Assembly (NCBI GenBank): GCA_041482475.1
Contig: JBGPDX010000003.1
Location: 1-38,703 of the forward strand
DNA from: Candidatus Limnocylindria bacterium
Lineage (GTDB): Bacteria; Chloroflexota; Limnocylindria; Limnocylindrales; CSP1-4
Direction: 5' to 3'
DNA: 38,703 bases
In this document: positions 837 through 30,354 of the stretch, one piece after another
Numbering within the stretch: position 1 is the first letter of the stretch
Layout of the letters: every line of letters starts with the position of its first letter
Translations under genes and position numbers: made by a program
The notes under the pieces: model-generated
Database searches by the model: none
The model's input: only the letters and a program-made list of their open reading frames with translations
What the model was told of the DNA's origin: nothing

Positions 837-1264
837 CCGGGCCGGCCGGCGACCCGCGTCTTCTGCTCGCCGCCGGTCGCTTTCCAGGCCCCGTCGATCT
901 CGTTGATCAGGTCGAGGAGCTTCTGCGCGTCGGCCAGGTCGGTCGACGCCTTGACCTTCGACACCTGCTTGTTGGCGTTCCAGAACAGCTCGTGCAGGTT
1001 CGGGACCTTGGCGATGTGCTCCGGCTTGAAGTAGTCGTGCCACAGGACGTCGAGATGATGCTTGACCAGCTCGGCGCGCTCTTCCTTGATACCGATGCAG
1101 CGCGTCCGGTACGTGACGTCCGAGTTGCCCTGGTATTTCTCGATGATCTTGTAGCAGGACTCCGCCTCGATCCTCGCCTGCTCCGGATCGTAGATCCCGC
1201 AGGGCAGGTCACAGTGGGCGCGGGCGACGGTGCTGGGGGCGAGCCAGCGGGTCAGTCGGGACAT
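833..1264 (-). CDS. sodN: Nickel superoxide dismutase precursor
   Basis: 16-aa leader then Ni-hook HCDLPCGIYDP; KEERAELVKHHLDVLWHDYFKP; SD AAGGAG upstream of ATG 1264. Confidence 0.97.
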   Translation of the reverse strand: MSRLTRWLAPSTVARAHCDLPCGIYDPEQARIEAESCYKIIEKYQGNSDVTYRTRCIGIKEERAELVKHHLDVLWHDYFKPEHIAKVPNLHELFWNANKQVSKVKASTDLADAQKLLDLINEIDGAWKATGGEQKTRVAGRPG

Positions 1265-1327
1265 GGGACTCCTTCGGGCATGAAAGGTGGTTTCGTGCCG
1301 CCGGGGCGGTCGCGACTCGAACTTCGA

Positions 1328-1356
1328 AGTGTCCGAGTGCCGCCGCACGCTGTCAA
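1328..1356 (-). promoter_or_regulatory. Putative sodN promoter
   Basis: TTGACA (1356-1351), 17 bp, GACACT (1333-1328). Confidence 0.55.
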
Positions 1357-1367
1357 ACGTCGTGGGG
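1352..1367. repeat. 16-bp direct repeat, copy 1 (GTCAAACGTCGTGGGG)
   Basis: Identical to 2877-2892; degenerate copy GTCAAATGTCGCGG at 1386-1399. Confidence 0.85.
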
Positions 1368-1408
1368 GTTAAGGGGTAGGCACCGGTCAAATGTCGCGGT
1401 GGGCGTCT

Positions 1409-1498
1409 CGAACGATACGGACACCCACGAACGACCGTCAACGCTCGATGGGGGTAGTAGATAGACGCCTCTGAAGTTGCCGCCGGAGCGACTTGGGG
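1409..1498 (-). repeat. Left inverted-repeat module with outward (leftward) promoter
   Basis: Core 1448-1482 is the reverse complement of 2748-2782 (34/35); on the minus strand it continues into TTGACG-18bp-TATCGT; CCCCAAG on the inner side. Confidence 0.9.
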
Positions 1499-1544
1499 TC
1501 ACCGTGTCGGAGCGGAGGTCGATCGGAGCACCTCGCTGGTTCAC
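1497..1544 (-). pseudogene. ltaE: Truncated N-terminus of a low-specificity L-threonine aldolase
   Basis: GTG overlapping the NMO stop (GTGA) gives MNQRGAPIDLRSDTVT; IDLRSDTVT is the typical LtaE/GLY1 N-terminal motif; similarity ends at the repeat. Confidence 0.75.
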
Positions 1545-2545
1545 GTCGTGATCGTCGCCGCCGCTCGATCGATGGCAACCTTCGCTTCCGCGGCGATGCG
1601 ACGGACGATGGCGGCGGCCGGCGCGACGTCGCGGACGAGACCGACGCTCTGGCCGGCCCACAACGGCAGTGCCTCGATGTCGCCCACGACCGCTGCGTGG
1701 GGCGCGGTCGTCGCGTACCGAACGATGGGGTCGCCGTCCCACGTCGCCAACGTCTCGCCTTCGCCCGGCCGATCGGTGGTGGGCCTGCCCGCCGTTTCCC
1801 AGGCCCGGATGGTGCTGTTGCGCAGGAATCGTCCGGGTGCATTGGGCCAGCCGATGTCGAAGACAGGTGAAATCACGGTCGAGGTTTCTGGCGCCTCCAG
1901 CAGCAGCTCTCGATAGCGCGGGTGTGAGGGCGTCTCCTCGGCCATGGCGAAGCGGGTACCCAGCCATCCGGCTGCAGCCCCAAGCGCGAGAACCGCGGCA
2001 AGGCCACGTCCGTCGCCGATCCCGCCGGCGGCGACGACCGGCACGGGCGCCACGGCATCGACGACCGCCGGGATCAGCGGCAGGGAAGCCACCGAGCCCC
2101 AGACGTGGCCACCGGCCTCCCAGCCCTGGGCGACCACGATGTCGACACCGGCCTCGACGGCCCGCCGTGCCTCCTCGGCACTGCCGACCGTGTGCATCAC
2201 GAGGGCTCCGCCGGCATGCGCGATCGGGACCAGGGGGGCCGGGTCGCCCCAGAACAACGAGACGATCGGGACACCCAGGTCGACGACCTGCTTCAGTCGC
2301 TCCTCCTGCGGCCACTCGAGGATCAGGTTGACTCCGAATGGGTGGTCGGAGCGCTCGCGCATCTCTGCGATGATCGACTGAACCTCGTCTGTCTCCGACC
2401 AGCTCAGGCTGATCATTCCGAGCGCGCCGGCGTTGCTGACGGCGGCGGCCAGTGGTGGCCGCGCCATGCCGCCGATGGGCGCCTGCACGATCGGGATGTC
2501 GATGCCCACGAGTCGCGTGAACGGGGTGTCGAAGACGATTGCCAT
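1541..2545 (-). CDS. Nitronate monooxygenase (2-nitropropane dioxygenase) family flavoprotein
   Basis: PIVQAPIGG, AVSNAGALG, PFGVNL, VAQGWEAGGH, AAGGIGDGRG, LGTRF, WAGQSVGL; SD GAGGAG 6 nt before ATG 2545. Confidence 0.93.
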   Translation of the reverse strand: MAIVFDTPFTRLVGIDIPIVQAPIGGMARPPLAAAVSNAGALGMISLSWSETDEVQSIIAEMRERSDHPFGVNLILEWPQEERLKQVVDLGVPIVSLFWGDPAPLVPIAHAGGALVMHTVGSAEEARRAVEAGVDIVVAQGWEAGGHVWGSVASLPLIPAVVDAVAPVPVVAAGGIGDGRGLAAVLALGAAAGWLGTRFAMAEETPSHPRYRELLLEAPETSTVISPVFDIGWPNAPGRFLRNSTIRAWETAGRPTTDRPGEGETLATWDGDPIVRYATTAPHAAVVGDIEALPLWAGQSVGLVRDVAPAAAIVRRIAAEAKVAIDRAAATITT

Positions 2546-2604
2546 GGCCATCTCCTCTTCATCGTCACGATACGCGACGGGCCCGCTGGCGTAGGCTCTT
2601 CGAG

Positions 2605-2747
2605 ATGCCCGCCGCCCATCCGATCTTCGGCAGAGATGTTCCGGACGCCGTCTGGCGAGCGGGCCCGGACCTGCTGGCCGACGCTCGACTGGCGGGATTC
2701 CTCCGCTCGATCGGCGAACATGACCTCGAGCGCCTCCCCAAGGAGAC
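2605..2747 (+). pseudogene. Probable truncated 5' end of an unidentified gene, divergent from NMO
   Basis: TAGGCT 7 nt before ATG 2605; MPAAHPIFGRDVPDAVWRAGPDLLADARLAGFLRSIGEHDLERLP has coding-like codons and then runs into the repeat. Confidence 0.45.
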
Positions 2748-2821
2748 CGGCAACTTCAGAGGCGTGTATCTACTACCCCCATGGTGCGTTGACACTCCGC
2801 GCGAGCGCTCCGTATGGTTCG
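2736..2821 (+). repeat. Right inverted-repeat module with outward (rightward) promoter
   Basis: CCCCAAG..CGGCAACTTCAGAGGCGTGTATCTACTACCCCCAT (2748-2782), then TTGACA (2789-2794), 18 bp, TATGGT (2813-2818). Confidence 0.9.
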
Positions 2822-2876
2822 CTCCACCTCGCCCGCGTCCGGCTCAGCGTCCGCCTTGTCGCGTTCCCTATAACCC

Positions 2877-2892
2877 GTCAAACGTCGTGGGG
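2877..2892. repeat. 16-bp direct repeat, copy 2
   Basis: Identical to 1352-1367. Confidence 0.85.
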
Positions 2893-3036
2893 TCAGGTCA
2901 GAGCCGCGAGACGAGCAACCGCGGCGCGAGCCGTTGACACGCGGCGCGATCGTAGTCCAACCTAGCGGACGCCGACCCGACTGGAGCTTGACGGGGGAGG
3001 ACCGATGCTCCCAGGGTCGCCTGGAGGAGGTCCGTC

Positions 3037-4224
3037 ATGCGCGCCCCTCATCGTCTCGGCATCGTCGTGGGCGCCCTGCTCATCGGCGCGGTCTGGAGTC
3101 CGCTCCCCGCCTCTGCAGTGACGTCGCCCTTCCTCGTGACCGCGGACCGGCCGGCGGCCGTTCCGGCCGGCCACAACTGGAGCTTCAACGACTTCTTTCC
3201 GCGGACGTTCAGCGTCCATGCGAACCGCGTCGTGCAGTTCAGGATCCTGGGCTTCCACACGGCGACACTGCTGCCCACGGGCATGACGGTCGCCCAGGAC
3301 CGCAACCTCCACCGCCTCGTGAGGCTCGACGCCGACGACACGACCCGCAACGCCAACGGAACGCGAAAGTCGACCTTCGAGTTCGGGGCCTTGATGCCGA
3401 CATCGACATCCTGCGGGGCAGCGTCGAATCCGTGCGTCTTCAACGGCCACTCGATTCTGTCGAGCGGAATCTCGTTTGGGCCCCCCGGGCCCTTCTACGT
3501 CAAGGTCAGCGCGGCCGTCGGCACGTATCAGTTTCTGTGCCGCATCCACCCGGGCATGAGTGGCTCCCTGACCGTGGTCCCGGCAGGCACGCACGCCACC
3601 AGCGACACCGAGCGGAGCGCGCGGGTCAGTGCCCAGATCCGCGCGGATCGTCACGACGGTTTCGTCGCCGAAGCGGCGGCGAACGCCGCCGGCGTGCATC
3701 GCAACGTCGATGGCACGACGACGTGGCTCCTTTCGGCCGGGACCGGGACCGTCCACACCGCCGTCCTCGAGATGCTTCCGCGCAACGTGAGCATCCACAA
3801 GGGCGACACCGTCGCCTGGCGCAGTCCCGAGGTGAATGAACCACACACGGTGACCTTCCCGGAGGAGCAGTTCACTGATCTCCAGCCGAAGTGCGAAGGG
3901 ACCGCTGGGCTGGACAGCGACGCCGTGCCCGTCGTCTTCCCGCCCGCGTCCCCGCTTGACTTCGGCTGCGGCGGACCCCCGGCGCCGCCGCCCGACGAGA
4001 TCGAGTTCGGCGGTGGCAATGGCGTGCGCTACATCGCCACCACGAGCACGATCTCCGATTCGGGAATCCTGGCGAGCCACGCGTGGGACACGGCGCTCCA
4101 CCTGCCGTTCGACGCGGCGCGCGCCCAGTGGAGCGTGCACTTCGCCAACGCAGCTCCGGGTACCTATCGCTACATGTGCCAGATCCACGGGGACGCGATG
4201 CAGGGCTTCATCGTCGTTCACTGA
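3037..4224 (+). CDS. Secreted protein with two cupredoxin (plastocyanin/azurin-like) domains
   Basis: Signal peptide ending PASA; site 1 GFHTAT...YQFLCRIHPGM; site 2 EPHTVTF...YRYMCQIHGDAM; SD GGAGG. Confidence 0.85.
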   Translation: MRAPHRLGIVVGALLIGAVWSPLPASAVTSPFLVTADRPAAVPAGHNWSFNDFFPRTFSVHANRVVQFRILGFHTATLLPTGMTVAQDRNLHRLVRLDADDTTRNANGTRKSTFEFGALMPTSTSCGAASNPCVFNGHSILSSGISFGPPGPFYVKVSAAVGTYQFLCRIHPGMSGSLTVVPAGTHATSDTERSARVSAQIRADRHDGFVAEAAANAAGVHRNVDGTTTWLLSAGTGTVHTAVLEMLPRNVSIHKGDTVAWRSPEVNEPHTVTFPEEQFTDLQPKCEGTAGLDSDAVPVVFPPASPLDFGCGGPPAPPPDEIEFGGGNGVRYIATTSTISDSGILASHAWDTALHLPFDAARAQWSVHFANAAPGTYRYMCQIHGDAMQGFIVVH

Positions 4225-4245
4225 AGTCCCTCGCGGCGCCCGCCC

Positions 4246-4272
4246 TTCGACAACACGTATTTCGACAACACG
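4246..4272. promoter_or_regulatory. Tandem 12-bp direct repeat TTCGACAACACG (15-bp period), probable regulator site
   Basis: Copies at 4246-4257 and 4261-4272, about 100 bp upstream of the next gene. Confidence 0.5.
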
Positions 4273-4369
4273 GATGACGCCTTGCGCAGCCGCGCATGAT
4301 GCGTCGGACGGACGCGGCGTCGAGCGACTGGCGAACCCGCTCCGTCCTCCAGTCGGGAGGTGCCCAGCC

Positions 4370-14686: not shown

Positions 14687-17600
14687 CTAGGGGCGCGCCA
14701 CGCGGGGCCGGTTCGGTCGCGGGCGAGCAGGCGGACCGACCAACGCCCGCAGCGTGTCGACCCGGTAGCCGGACTGCTCGCCGCTCGCGGCGAGTCGCAG
14801 GATGAGGGCCGCCTCGGCGGCGAGAGCCTTGTCGTCGACCGTGGCATCGATGGCGTCGAGGAGCAGGGCCCAGTCGAGCAGGTCGCGCCACTCGTCGCGC
14901 CCGAACCACTCGACGCCCTCCCAGCGGTTGACGCGAAGGAAGGCCCGAACGTCCGGCTGGTCGAGCCACGCGCTCACCAGGCGTCTGGCCCGCTCGGGCG
15001 TCGTTCGACCGCCGACGTTCGACGGTCGCGGCAGGGCGAGCAGCAGCCCCACCCGTTCCGTCGCTCCCCAGGCCGCCGCCTCGTCGAGCCCGGCCGCGCG
15101 GAATGCGCCGGCCAGGACGCTCGCCAGCCGCAGCTCGTCGAACCAGGCTCGGCTGGTGGGCCCGACCATCGCTCTCGGCGCGAGGCCGCCCAGTGGCTCG
15201 AGGATCGACCAGCCGGCGAGGACCGCGCGGTGCCACGGATCGGCGAACGCGGCACGGACCGGGTGGAGGGGATCCCGCGCCGCCGCTCGCGCCGCCCGCG
15301 ACGCTCGCGACGCCGCCCCCGTCGATCCTGCCGCAGGCACGTCGCCGGCGGATCGCCGGCCGATCGCCAACAGCCGCCCGACCGCCACGCCGGCGACGCG
15401 ACCCGGATCGCCCGTCGTTCCGGTGGCTTCGGCGACGCTCCGTGCGAGCGCGGCCTGCGAGCCCTCGATCGCGTCGGCGTCGACAGGCCGGCCATCGCGG
15501 ACGAGCTCGACCATGCCGCTCGTCGCCGCCAGCGCGCGGATGGCCGCGTGAACGGGCTCGAGCTCGAGCTCGCGGAGCGCGTCCTCGAGGCTTGGCACGC
15601 CGGCGCCCTGCAGGTGGCCCGCCAGCCGTCGCCAGACGCCGACGCGATCGACGATGTCGCGGAACTCCCAGAACACGTGGCAGCGGTACGCGTCGAGCTG
15701 GAGCCACAGCCCGCCGTCGCGCAATTCGGCCGCGGAACGCAGGTACTCCAGTCCACCCCGCGCGTCGCGGAAGGCGACGAACGCGTCGCCGCCTCCGGTC
15801 AGGCGCAGGCCTTCGGCCAGGCTGCGCTGTTCGACGTGCTTCGACCCATCCGCGCCCTTGACGGCGTAGCCGACGGAGCGCCGGATGCGGCCGGACGTCG
15901 AGGCGAAGCGGTTGTGGTAGACGACCAGTGAGCGAGCCGGGCCGCGCCCATTCGAATAGGCGAAGACGTTCTCGTCGACGCCGCCCTGGTCGTGCTCGAA
16001 GTCGTAGAGCAGGAAGTCGTCGGCGCCGGCGAACTGCGCGCGCCGGTGGAGGAGCGGGAAGATCTCGCGCTCGTGGCGCTCGACGAGCCACGGATCGGGC
16101 CGCTCGTCGAGCGTCGCCCTGCGGAACTCCATCCCGTACTTCTCGCCGAATCCCTCCACCTGGCCGTGACCCAGCAACGGCAGTCCGGGGAGTGTCGCGA
16201 GCAGCGTCGCAACGCCGAAGTACTTGTCGCCCTTGCCGAACTGCTCGACCGCGGTCGCCTCGTCCGGGTTGCTCATGAAGTTCACATACCGCTTGAGGAT
16301 CTCCGGATCGAACTCGAGGGTCTCCTTCATCACGCGCCGATAGCCACCGTTGGTCTCGTCTCGCAGCATGTGCATGAAGGCGCTGTTGTAGACGCGGTGC
16401 ATCCCGAGCGTCCGGACGAAGTAGCCCTCGAGCAGCCAGAACGCCTCGGCCAGGAGGAGCGTGTCGGGGACCTGTGTCGCGACCCGGTCGACGACGTCGC
16501 GCCAGAACTCCGTCGGCATCGCGGCGTCGAAGGCGGCCTTCGGCAGCGCATGCTCGGCGCGCGACGGGATCGCGCCGCCGGCGCCCGGCTCCGGGTACCA
16601 CAGGCGCTCGACGTGCTTCCTGGCGAGGACCATCGCGGCGTCGAAGCGGATGATCGGGAAGCGTCGGGCGACGTCGAGGATCGTCTCGATGACGGCCTCG
16701 CGGACCTCCGCCTTGAGGTAGTCGAGCTGCGCCGTGTCGTTCCACGGAAAGCTCGTCCCGTCGTTGCCGTGGTAGACGAATCGATTCTCGCCGGACCATC
16801 GGTCGAGGCGGCGGAACACGACCGCCGCATCCGACGAGTCGTAGTAATGGTCCTCGAGGAAGATCCCGACCCGCTCGTCGGACGACAGGTCCGGGCCGCC
16901 GAACGAATACGACGGGTAGGGCGGCTCCGGCAGCGAGATGAACCGCTCTGGGTGCTCGACCATCCAGCGCGAATCGATCCCCATGTGGTTCGGCACCATG
17001 TCCGACGCGAGGCGGATGCCGCGCGACCAGGCCCGGCCGCGCAGGTTGGCGAACGCGGACTCGCCGCCCAGGTCGTCGGCGATGCGGTAGTCGTCGAGTG
17101 AGTAGGCCGACGCGACGGCGTCGACGTTGCCGCGCAGTTGCTTGATCCGCCGCGACGCGCGCGACCGTTCCCACAGCCCGATCAGCCACAGCCCGCTGAC
17201 GCCCCAGCGGGCCAGCGTGTCGAGCTCCTCGTCGGGGATCGCGTCGAGGCTGTGGATGTCGCGGCCGTAGCGGCGGGACAGCTGGTCGAGCCAGACATAC
17301 GTGCTGCGGGCGAGGAGGACGACCCGCGGCATCCACTCCGAGTCGGAGCTGAACCGCTCCGGCTCCGCGTCGAGGCCGCCGAACGACGGCGTCTCGACCA
17401 GGCCACCGAAACCACCCTGGCCGCCGCCGAACCGGAGATGGAGGGCGCGCTCCTCCTCGGCCAGGACGTCGAGGCCGATGAGGATCCTGTCGAGGAGAGC
17501 GCCGAGCTCGCCCAGCAGCGGCGCCCAGCGGTCACGGACGTAGCGGAGCTGGCCGGCGAGCGACGTCGGCGAGGCGCCAACCGGCGCGCGGAGCATCGCC

Positions 17601-18230: not shown

Positions 18231-19256
18231 TCACGCGGGCAGCCGCACCGTCGCCTTGCTCCTTGCAGCATGGACGTGGTCGATCGCGCGTCGCAACAGC
18301 TCGAGCCCCGCCGGATCGAACTCGTACGTCCACGGCCGGATCCGCTCCCGTCGCGAGAAGCGGGATTCGAGGCCCGCCGCGAGCGCCTCGCGCGACATCA
18401 GGATGACGTCCGCGGTCCGGTCGACGAGAGCGAGGTCGTCGTCCGCCTCGATCGTCGCCGAAACGATCTCGACGCCCTTCGTCCCGGACAGCGCCAGCGT
18501 CTCGGCGATGTTGTCCGTGCCGCGCTCCGAGGCGCAGACGAGGCCGACACGCGATCCGGCGGGCAGCCCGGCGATCTCGTGGACGAGCTCCACGTAGCCG
18601 GGACCGATCAGCATCGCCACGACGGGCACCCGACCGTGCACCAGCGCCTGCGTCTCGTCGGCGTGGAACGTCGTCGTGGCCACCAGGTCGTAGTGGAATC
18701 GCTGGAGCCGATCCGGGACGTCGTCGAGCAGCGCCCCCTCGGCCTCGATGTCGCCGCGGAACGCGTCGTTCAGCCGCTGAGCGTCATAGCCGGCGTCGGC
18801 GTTGGTGCATTCGGCGAAGAGGACCCGGACCAGGGGGCCGGGACGCTTGCGTTCGGTCGCCGCAGCGAACGTGGCGGCAGCGACCTCGTCGGCGGTGAAT
18901 CCGGCCGCTGAACCGCGACGGAGCAGCTCGGCGACGATCCCGGCTAGCGCCTCTGCGCCGCGACGACTGGGCGGGCGATCGGCGACGACCGTCCCCGCAC
19001 CGTGTCGACTGGTGACGTAGCCGGCATCGGCCAGGCGGCGATACACCGCCCGGATCGTGTTGGGGTTCACCCGGAGTGCGGCGCCCAGCTCCCGGACGGG
19101 CGGCAGGCGGGAGCCGGGCAGGAGGCGGCCGGAATCGATCTGGTACGTGAGCTGCCAGTAGATCTGGGTCGAGATCGGGACGTCCGAATCACGCTCGACG
19201 TCGAGGTCGCTGCCCGACGGGATGACGATCGGCTGGTCCGCGTCAGTACTTGACAT
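18231..19256 (-). CDS. GntR family transcriptional regulator with long C-terminal effector region
   Basis: PISTQI...GSRLPPVRELGAALRVNPNTIRAVYRRL...GAGT winged HTH. Confidence 0.9.
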   Translation of the reverse strand: MSSTDADQPIVIPSGSDLDVERDSDVPISTQIYWQLTYQIDSGRLLPGSRLPPVRELGAALRVNPNTIRAVYRRLADAGYVTSRHGAGTVVADRPPSRRGAEALAGIVAELLRRGSAAGFTADEVAAATFAAATERKRPGPLVRVLFAECTNADAGYDAQRLNDAFRGDIEAEGALLDDVPDRLQRFHYDLVATTTFHADETQALVHGRVPVVAMLIGPGYVELVHEIAGLPAGSRVGLVCASERGTDNIAETLALSGTKGVEIVSATIEADDDLALVDRTADVILMSREALAAGLESRFSRRERIRPWTYEFDPAGLELLRRAIDHVHAARSKATVRLPA

Positions 19257-30278: not shown

Positions 30279-30354
30279 GCGGGAGTAGCTCAGTTGGCAG
30301 AGCGTCAGCCTTCCAAGCTGAATGTCGCGGGTTCGATCCCCGTCTCCCGCTCCA
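30279..30354 (+). tRNA. tRNA-Gly (TCC)
   Basis: GCGGGAG acceptor stem, TAGCTCAGTTGG D-arm, CT-TCC-AA anticodon loop, GTTCGATC T-loop, encoded CCA; TAGACT upstream. Confidence 0.97.

Follow-up and report, generated by a model that had tools for sequence, protein, structure and literature searches.

A probable non-autonomous casposon derivative with a captured nitronate monooxygenase gene at the sodN promoter of a Candidatus Limnocylindria bacterium

The first 38,703 nucleotides of contig JBGPDX010000003.1 in assembly GCA_041482475.1, from a Candidatus Limnocylindria bacterium (the window), contain a small insert beside sodN in which an intact nitronate monooxygenase (NMO) gene lies between inverted repeats. 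This element is probably a non-autonomous, compound derivative of a casposon, made up of two casposon-type terminal inverted repeats (TIRs) and approximately 1.27 kb of captured foreign DNA. A sequence-only reading of positions 1409-2821 had already proposed a gene-capture cassette here but had recognised no known type in the repeat. That part has to be replaced, because full-length members of the same repeat family link it to a Cas1 gene and a gene for a PolB-like protein. Since neither Cas1 nor a family B DNA polymerase is encoded inside the window element, we file it as casposon-derived and not as a casposon proper.

The inverted repeats are real. Copies of a 35-nt motif at 1448-1482 (reverse strand) and 2748-2782 (forward strand) agree at 34 of 35 positions, and none of 100 dinucleotide shuffles gave a match. 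A repeat finder extended the arms to 46 nt (1437-1482 and 2748-2793, 93% complementary), within which the longest exact stretch common to both is 18 nt. An extra 13-nt block (1409-1421 and 2809-2821, 12/13) lies 15 nt beyond the arm on each side and occurs at these two places only in the 2.55-Mb, 268-contig assembly (G000). The boundaries first drawn around the cassette took in the repeats but missed a direct repeat of 14 nt farther out, at 1352 and 2877. The heptamer CTTGGGG/CCCCAAG, to which the same reading had drawn attention, is present inside the arms, 9 nt from the left one (1492-1498) and 5 nt from the right one (2736-2742), but it is not a shared site: when inner flanks were compared, it was absent as a feature of the other ends of the family. 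What the family does share is a 32-nt core, here at 1451-1482 and 2748-2779, whose two copies differ at a single position. The assembly contains one copy of the window element and a third, solo copy of the TIR on another contig (C54, 3946-3977). The solo TIR sits 150 nt past a gene that by eye resembles a ROK-family kinase gene, and it opens a stretch of DNA without a homologue in 10 genus relatives, synteny having stopped before the TIR. We looked for a partner end to this copy and found none.

We searched 401 genomes of the class with the family pattern GGGGTAGTAGNTANNNNNNTCNGAAGTTGCCG, allowing up to 2 mismatches, and ran the reversed pattern as a control. The pattern matched 41 genomes and the control none. 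By family, the positive genomes number 20/137 in f1, 20/153 in f4, 0/16 in f2, 0/92 in f3 and 0/2 in f5; within the genus of the window organism, three of the 11 genomes are positive. Eight TIR pairs at seven fetched loci, in seven genomes, lie 2.3-17.9 kb apart, each with a direct repeat of 13-15 nt; with the two pairs described next, a direct duplication of 13-15 bp abutting the TIRs was present in all 10 pairs examined besides that of the window. One relative (G009, contig C15) has a pair about 0.8 kb apart, with ends GGGGTAGTAG... and ...CTACTACCCC, flanked on both sides by the 13/14-nt direct repeat GTCCGCACGATGA. The matching empty site is found in G000 itself, on contig C20, where the same two convergent genes are only about 30 nt apart. 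In another relative (G008, contig C14) the pair spans 2,625 bp and the duplication is GGTCGTGCTTGAC. The occurrence of the motif around varying cargo in relatives is thus borne out, and by these comparisons the window repeats are mobile-element ends that enclose different cargo across the family.

Where elements are neighbours they stand back to back with one shared direct repeat between them, and two such TIRs with the 14-nt spacer form a 78-nt palindrome. A second, diverged end type (...GCAACTCGGT...ACTACCCC) occurs back to back with canonical ends at two loci (L142, about 18818-18850; L143, about 16518-16550), which suggests a sister TIR subfamily with the same target. At six loci in five genomes the duplicated 14 nt hold a -35 box (TTGAC). 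It belongs to a sigma-70-like promoter directed outward from the element, and a conserved hairpin follows the targeted promoter; Rfam returned no family for the target flanks of six loci. Behind these promoters lie genes for a NifU/SufU-like protein and for an Rrf2-family regulator, the latter together with suf genes. The G008 duplication and the outer repeat of the window also lie on a -35. Since the duplicated segment contains the promoter -35, each insertion rebuilds the promoter that it hits.

Two full-length elements give the family its identity. In the 17.9-kb element of genome G252 and the 15.4-kb element of G610, a Cas1 gene lies between the TIRs, which answers the earlier call for a recombinase that co-occurs with the motif, and the target duplications are 14-15 bp. 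The G252 Cas1 has 542 amino acids with a cysteine-rich C-terminal extension; it matches the Pfam profile at 3.7e-39 and TIGR00287 at 2e-31, and its best PDB matches are the Cas1 chains 4n06 and 6opm. Beside it is a gene for a 993-aa PolB-like protein, whose counterpart in G610 is 48% identical over 990 aa. This protein matched PHROG 'DNA polymerase' profiles (1.5e-5 and 7.7e-4) and, below the cut-off, Pfam DNA_pol_B_2 (E 0.014). Its Atlas language-model neighbours, at 0.99, are named DNA polymerase, and exonuclease and polymerase motifs could be read by eye; tblastn against plasmid records found nothing similar. The 20-kb G252 locus, where cas2 was not searched for, showed no CRISPR tandem array, and the family elements examined contain no tyrosine or serine recombinase. 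Further cargo in G252 includes type I restriction-modification genes and an Mrr-type nuclease. The same locus has two matches to the c-di-GMP-II-GAG riboswitch (71 and 67 bits) and one to a SAM riboswitch (48.7 bits), at 3703-3789, 19090-19175 and 2557-2656 of L144 (G252:C43), and two of the three lie within the 17.9-kb casposon.

Cas1 was found in 16 of 401 class genomes, in a second sample with the same make-up by family as the one used for the TIR scan. Ten of the genes score in a lower, casposase-like range (119-152 bits), and six of those ten have a TIR on the same contig within about 16 kb; one of these linkages comes from G611, which, like G009, is an unpublished genome. The passages of PMC4046053, PMC4779613 and PMC5137440 on which we draw give a length of 25-602 nt for casposon TIRs and a median of 15 nt for the duplications, place bacterial casposons, including one from an actinobacterium, in 'family 3', and describe tandem arrays that share a duplication. 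They also describe integration steered by the duplicated segment together with an adjoining leader-like stretch, and PMC5137440 reports that a casposase inserts TIR-flanked marker genes with 13-15-bp duplications. Because its full-length members combine Cas1 and a PolB-like gene with 14-15-bp duplications and no CRISPR array, we assign the TIR family, from its gene content and ends, to the casposons.

Most carriers of the TIR have no such enzyme. Cas1 was not found in 35 of the 41 TIR-positive genomes, nor in any of the 11 genomes of the genus, which are 62-91% complete. Two 3.8-kb tandem elements in G174 have no cas1 and carry unrelated cargoes (an extracytoplasmic function (ECF) sigma factor, an HsdS-like gene and an NlpC/P60 gene). 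We did not find cas1 in a 2.3-kb element of G613 or in a 6.2-kb element of G466, a genome that is 91% complete in 4 contigs. Fragments persist in two cases: an element of G136 keeps only residues 378-988 of the PolB-like protein (L142, 16382-18293), and in G174 element 1 a stretch of 54 aa still matches the C-terminus of the casposase (L138, 9460-9621). Judged by these remnants, both are deletion derivatives of full casposons.

The window element likewise has the TIRs of an autonomous family, common to it and the Cas1/PolB-bearing elements of G252 and G610, with no transposase inside. The Cas_Cas1 profile matched neither the element nor any part of G000, and tblastn of the G252 Cas1 and PolB-like proteins against that assembly gave no match and no trace. 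As had been noted at the outset, the window contains no recombinase or transposase, and with none encoded here the element would depend on one supplied in trans. Elsewhere in G000 we found no Resolvase, no Tn3 transposase (DDE_Tnp_Tn3) and no IS256-type enzyme, and two matches to Phage_integrase, the tyrosine recombinase profile, on contigs C25 and C2.

The DNA between the repeats comes from elsewhere. Besides the NMO gene, it carries the beginnings of two further genes, as the sequence-only reading had described. The first, ltaE', is coupled to NMO, its GTG at 1544 overlapping the NMO stop. The second, the divergent open reading frame from ATG 2605 (ACS'), matches only the N-termini of proteins of about 660-730 aa, in relatives and on G000:C21, over its residues 2-47, and is thus truncated at its right end; one of the matching proteins, from G006, is an enzyme with ACAS_N and AMP-binding domains. 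The native order is seen in a metagenome contig (L031, 74% identical), where an acyl-CoA synthetase gene diverges from NMO and NMO is followed by a full Beta_elim_lyase gene (2e-79) beginning ...PIDLRSDTVTRPTPAM. An intact NMO-aldolase pair therefore does exist elsewhere. A contig from another sequencing run (X15) is 99% identical over 1496-2629, and its letters past 1496 read RPTPA, which suggests that it carries an intact aldolase gene. On the evidence of these alignments, the cargo represents part of a foreign operon, with stubs of the two native neighbours of NMO. The proposal that a 1.25-kb piece of another locus had been cut regardless of gene borders thus holds, with L031 as its main witness and X15 as a hint; the piece may have been placed between these sites or left there by deletions in a larger casposon.

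Any NMO match at E up to 1e-30 was found in only 9 of 401 genomes. NMO DNA about 98.5-99% identical to that of the window occurs at G009:C346, L029 and L030, each time with other flanks; identity of 99% between the cargo and its copies in other species means that the events that moved it were recent. Break points around NMO at these other places vary (1545, 1547 and 1496 on one side; 2588, 2617 and 2688 on the other). L029 breaks at the same aldolase cut point as the window, 1496, yet without the repeat. At G009:C346 and L029 the NMO gene is enclosed by two direct copies of a tRNA-Gln 3' end, the last 47-61 nt of tRNA-Gln(CTG) (L002, the G009:C346 locus, 1305-1352 and 2544-2591; L029, 2999-3048 and 5731-5780). 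No complete tRNA was called at either place, and a full tRNA-Gln is located at G000:C12 28937-29012. These NMO homes look like a decayed tRNA-targeting island; L029 also contains an internally deleted synthetase gene.

One alternative shares the casposon ancestry and differs in how the small unit arose. A full-length casposon, here or in a donor, would have lost cas1, polB and the rest by deletion and illegitimate recombination, so that the small unit never transposed and its TIRs are fossils. We consider this quite possible, if not probable. The PolB remnant in G136 and the casposase C-terminal remnant in G174 element 1 show such losses in other elements, the varied junctions around NMO elsewhere (1545, 1547, 2588, 2617, 2688) look like deletions, and the genus has no Cas1 in any of its genomes. 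However, G000 retains no trace of cas1 or polB, and the near-identical TIRs, like the cargo shared at 99% between species, speak for recent events. The cas1-less tandem cassettes with one common duplication suggest repeated integration. A variant junction, 2587->2737, also joins the right TIR region straight to the NMO core; it was seen in one contig each from runs X12, X13 and X15, which extend at most 43 letters past the joint (to about 2779 in X12), so that nothing beyond the TIR is seen. We take it as at most a hint that relatives of the window unit lie elsewhere.

The insertion site was examined by comparison with relatives. To the left of the element are sodX and sodN (Peptidase_S26, Sod_Ni); a cupredoxin gene and then a LysM gene lie to the right, and on each side the outer flank keeps the synteny of relatives. 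Homology upstream of sodN with G004, G005, G007 and G009 stops at 1359-1366, and homology with the G009 cupredoxin promoter begins only at about 2930. Past the end of the sodN homology the relatives have small membrane-protein genes (G005, G007), another gene (G004) or a reversed cupredoxin gene (G009), and none of these four has the NMO segment between sodN and the next genes, so that the anticipated relatives without the insert do exist. An exact direct repeat of 14 nt, or 16 nt with the adjoining GG, was found at 1352-1367 and 2877-2892 (Table 1). Taken together, the alignments identify 1366-2876 (1,511 bp) as a strain-specific insertion at the sodN promoter -35, bounded by this 14-nt direct repeat. 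In size and GTCAA content the outer repeat agrees with the duplications of the TIR family, which makes it a candidate target-site duplication of the whole insert.

Between this outer repeat and the TIRs lie two arms. A promoter scan of 1200-3100 found two sites only, where 0.3 would be expected, one in each arm and both reading outward. The left arm is homologous over 72 nt (gapped), and the right arm identical at 37 of 42 positions, to a promoter region without a TIR at G002:C23. That stretch (L004, 953-996) stands before a gene that by eye encodes a LuxR/MalT-type regulator, of which we found no ortholog in G000. Possibly it is a casposon target without an insert, or else the window arms derive from it. 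No homologue of the left outer arm was found upstream of sodN in relatives.

These arms admit another alternative, in which they were a native, palindromic pair of divergent promoters into which stray DNA was end-joined, with no transposase acting at the site. The inverted, promoter-like TIR flanks and their homology to the TIR-less G002 promoter fit it, as does a 4-nt filler (TGGG/TAGG) at a variant junction. We nevertheless think it very unlikely: the 32-nt core travels with inserts and not with hosts (G000:C20 is empty, G009:C15 filled), it bounds Cas1/PolB elements, and the arms themselves are within the DNA that relatives lack upstream of sodN.

The near-identity of the inverted arms might also point to an invertible switch, in which recombination between the 46-nt arms flips the NMO segment and alters expression of its neighbours. 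Orientation switching of mini-casposons through TIR recombination in E. coli is described in the part of PMC5137440 used here. The outward promoter-like sites are outside the arm cores and would stay put, and no invertase is encoded in the assembly, which has no Resolvase match and only the two Phage_integrase matches on other contigs. Contigs from four runs contained no strand-changing joint and none joining 1365 to 2877, but contigs drop rare forms, so this is not evidence. We find such a switch hard to credit. A chimera formed by the assembler at a gene shared between organisms has next to no likelihood: although an NMO core 99% identical in several organisms and contexts can mislead assemblers, the arms have no exact match longer than 18 nt, the outer flanks are syntenic with relatives, and contigs of independent runs span both junctions without a difference (X12, 1280-1498; X6, 1352-2327 and 2303-3400). 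Both junctions are genuine, and the suspicion of an assembly artefact raised earlier can be set aside.

Table 1. Features of the element and its insertion site, in window coordinates.
Feature	Position	Strand	Basis or remark
Outer direct repeat, copy 1, GTCAAACGTCGTGG	1352..1365	.	on -35 of conserved sodN promoter; identity runs to 1367
Left outer arm	1366..1450	-	begins GGGTTA, inverted match to TAACCC at 2871-2876; ends with GTCAACGCTCGATG (1437-1450)
Left outward promoter-like site	TTGACG 1441-1436, 18 nt, TATCGT 1417-1412	-	promoter scan
Left TIR, casposon type, GGGGTAGTAGATAGACGCCTCTGAAGTTGCCG	1451..1482	+	0 mismatches to family pattern; aligned with 31 other ends
Linker between left TIR and cargo, 14 nt	1483..1496	.	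holds first five letters of CTTGGGG (1492-1498); L029 and run X15, the 99% relatives, cease to match at 1496
ltaE', first 16 codons of a threonine-aldolase-type gene, MNQRGAPIDLRSDTVT	1497..1544	-	translation; GTG start overlaps NMO stop (GTGA)
NMO gene, intact, 336 aa (cargo)	1541..2551	-	Pfam NMO 8.1e-55
ACS', first 47 codons of an acyl/acetoacetyl-CoA-synthetase-type gene	2605..2745	+	divergent from NMO; ends 2 nt before right TIR
Right TIR, casposon type	2748..2779	-	31/32 to left TIR; 0 mismatches to family pattern
Right outer arm	2780..2876	+	begins with CATGGTGCGTTGAC (2780-2793); ends TAACCC
Right outward promoter-like site	TTGACA 2789-2794, 18 nt, TATGGT 2813-2818	+	promoter scan
Outer direct repeat, copy 2	2877..2890	.	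identity runs to 2892

The cupredoxin gene to the right of the element (3007-4229 in the window) is inverted in G009 (L025, G009:C24, 1501-2726), and the sodN-LysM interval is a hot spot of rearrangement. Just past the cupredoxin gene, at 4246-4275, 2 copies of the 15-nt unit TTCGACAACACGTAT (93%) form a tandem repeat.

How a non-autonomous casposon derivative would have reached this site can be outlined from the TIR family and from what has been published on casposases. The TIR ends would be bound by a Cas1-type integrase, which would join them to a promoter -35 segment (GTCAA plus about 8 nt) with its 'leader', and repair after the joining would duplicate approximately 14 nt. Elements without the enzyme would move only if another element supplied the casposase. 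In the present case, a casposase from another element, now absent, unassembled or left in a former host, would have joined the unit to the sodN promoter. The cargo could have entered by illegitimate recombination or through deletions inside a larger casposon. Each end of the window element resembles the junction that a normal insertion has on its leader side, and three histories could account for this. Two insertions at a divergent promoter pair may have fused through TIR recombination, the compound later moving to the sodN promoter; a single element may have composite ends of about 115-130 nt; or a template switch between the TIRs may have copied one flank in reverse. The window copy is probably stranded at present, because no casposase was seen in this genome or genus.

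Several observations weigh against the reading of the element as a mobilised casposon derivative. The 14 nt adjoining its TIRs are inverted copies of each other (11/14) and not a direct duplication, unlike all 10 of the other pairs. Against shuffled sequences the outer ends (GGGTTA...) showed no significant likeness to the canonical TIR (p 0.23-0.44), and neither the assembly nor the fetched loci contain another copy of them. Nor did we see the small element itself, as sequence, at any second site. For this genus, in which no casposase is known (genomes 62-91% complete), mobilisation in trans has no support, and the polB and casposase fragments that persist in two elements show that decay in place can also produce small elements. 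The identification of the family itself is also qualified. Its likeness to published casposon TIRs is one of described length. The 993-aa protein had no PDB or NCBIfam match, and its assignment to the family B DNA polymerases, through weak profiles, language-model neighbours and motifs read by eye, is weak.

In its TIRs, its duplication of about 14-15 bp, its preference for leader-like flanks and its tandem arrays with one duplication, the family resembles the casposons as described in the parts of PMC4046053 and PMC4779613 consulted, and it likewise combines variable cargo, such as restriction-modification genes, with a PolB-like gene and a Cas1 that is extended at its C-terminus. It differs from them in its target, a promoter -35 (of Rrf2/suf, sodN and a trpE-like gene) and not the end of a tRNA or elongation factor 2 (EF-2) gene, and the window copy differs further in having neither Cas1 nor PolB, a size of only 1.3-1.5 kb and inverted inner flanks. 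Closer in form are artificial mini-casposons, whose cargo is flanked only by TIRs and which, according to the sections of PMC5137440 at hand, a casposase integrates with 13-15-bp duplications, occasional aberrant events setting the two ends at distant positions. Those are laboratory constructs, whereas the window unit is natural, carries gene fragments and resides in a genome with no detectable casposase.

Integron cassettes offer a parallel in their promoter-adjacent arrays, diverse single-function cargo and intervening imperfect palindromes. They differ in that the family elements have no IntI-type integrase in or beside them, duplicate their target on insertion and, by eye, have ends that do not fit attC core sites. 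We rejected an integron cassette or attC site, the two Phage_integrase matches of G000 being on C25 and C2 and none being found in or beside five elements of other genomes. Mobile insertion cassettes and elements like miniature inverted-repeat transposable elements (MITEs), for example MIC231 of Bacillus cereus, reportedly enclose passenger DNA between the ends of an autonomous element. They resemble the window unit in lacking an internal transposase and depending on an enzyme in trans, and differ from it in their DDE transposase, which stands in place of a Cas1 integrase, in the shorter duplication and in the absence of promoter -35 targets. Multi-copy spread of one small unit was not observed here. 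A Tn3-derived element (TIME) was rejected, as G000 has no DDE_Tnp_Tn3 match and the duplications are 13-15 bp and not 5 bp. So was a tRNA-targeting island or att site at this position, the only tRNA of the window being at 30279-30354. Rfam, searched at E up to 10 over 1200-3100, gave two chance snoRNA-like hits outside the repeats, and a known RNA was likewise dismissed. Among plasmid records the arms had no match, and the cassette matched only distant NMO genes.

In the literature searched, with subscription papers and supplements outside its scope, we found no description of natural enzyme-less casposon derivatives. For the genome studied here, the casposon reading accounts for a strain-specific insert by which the interval from sodN to the cupredoxin gene has acquired a pair of outward promoter-like sites. 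For the family, one conserved TIR marks its members in about a tenth of the sampled genomes of the class. Casposons appear as rare, large and autonomous in those parts of the published accounts on which we draw; here they are mostly small, enzyme-less units with diverse cargo. A more far-reaching interpretation, which we regard as rather unlikely, is a class-wide cassette system in which casposases add TIR-bounded units without cas1 or polB serially beside a promoter 'leader', with a copy of one duplicated 14-nt segment between neighbouring units, the NMO unit of the window being one such cassette, moved in trans and between species. If this were true, the units would carry defence, regulatory or metabolic genes, and the system would be a living analogue of the leader-repeat-insert arrangement proposed between casposon and CRISPR array. 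Casposases would be general vectors of gene cassettes if the units do move in trans, and ideas on the origin of CRISPR arrays from casposon target sites would then have a natural testbed in tandem arrays of the form 'leader - 14-nt repeat - insert - 14-nt repeat'.

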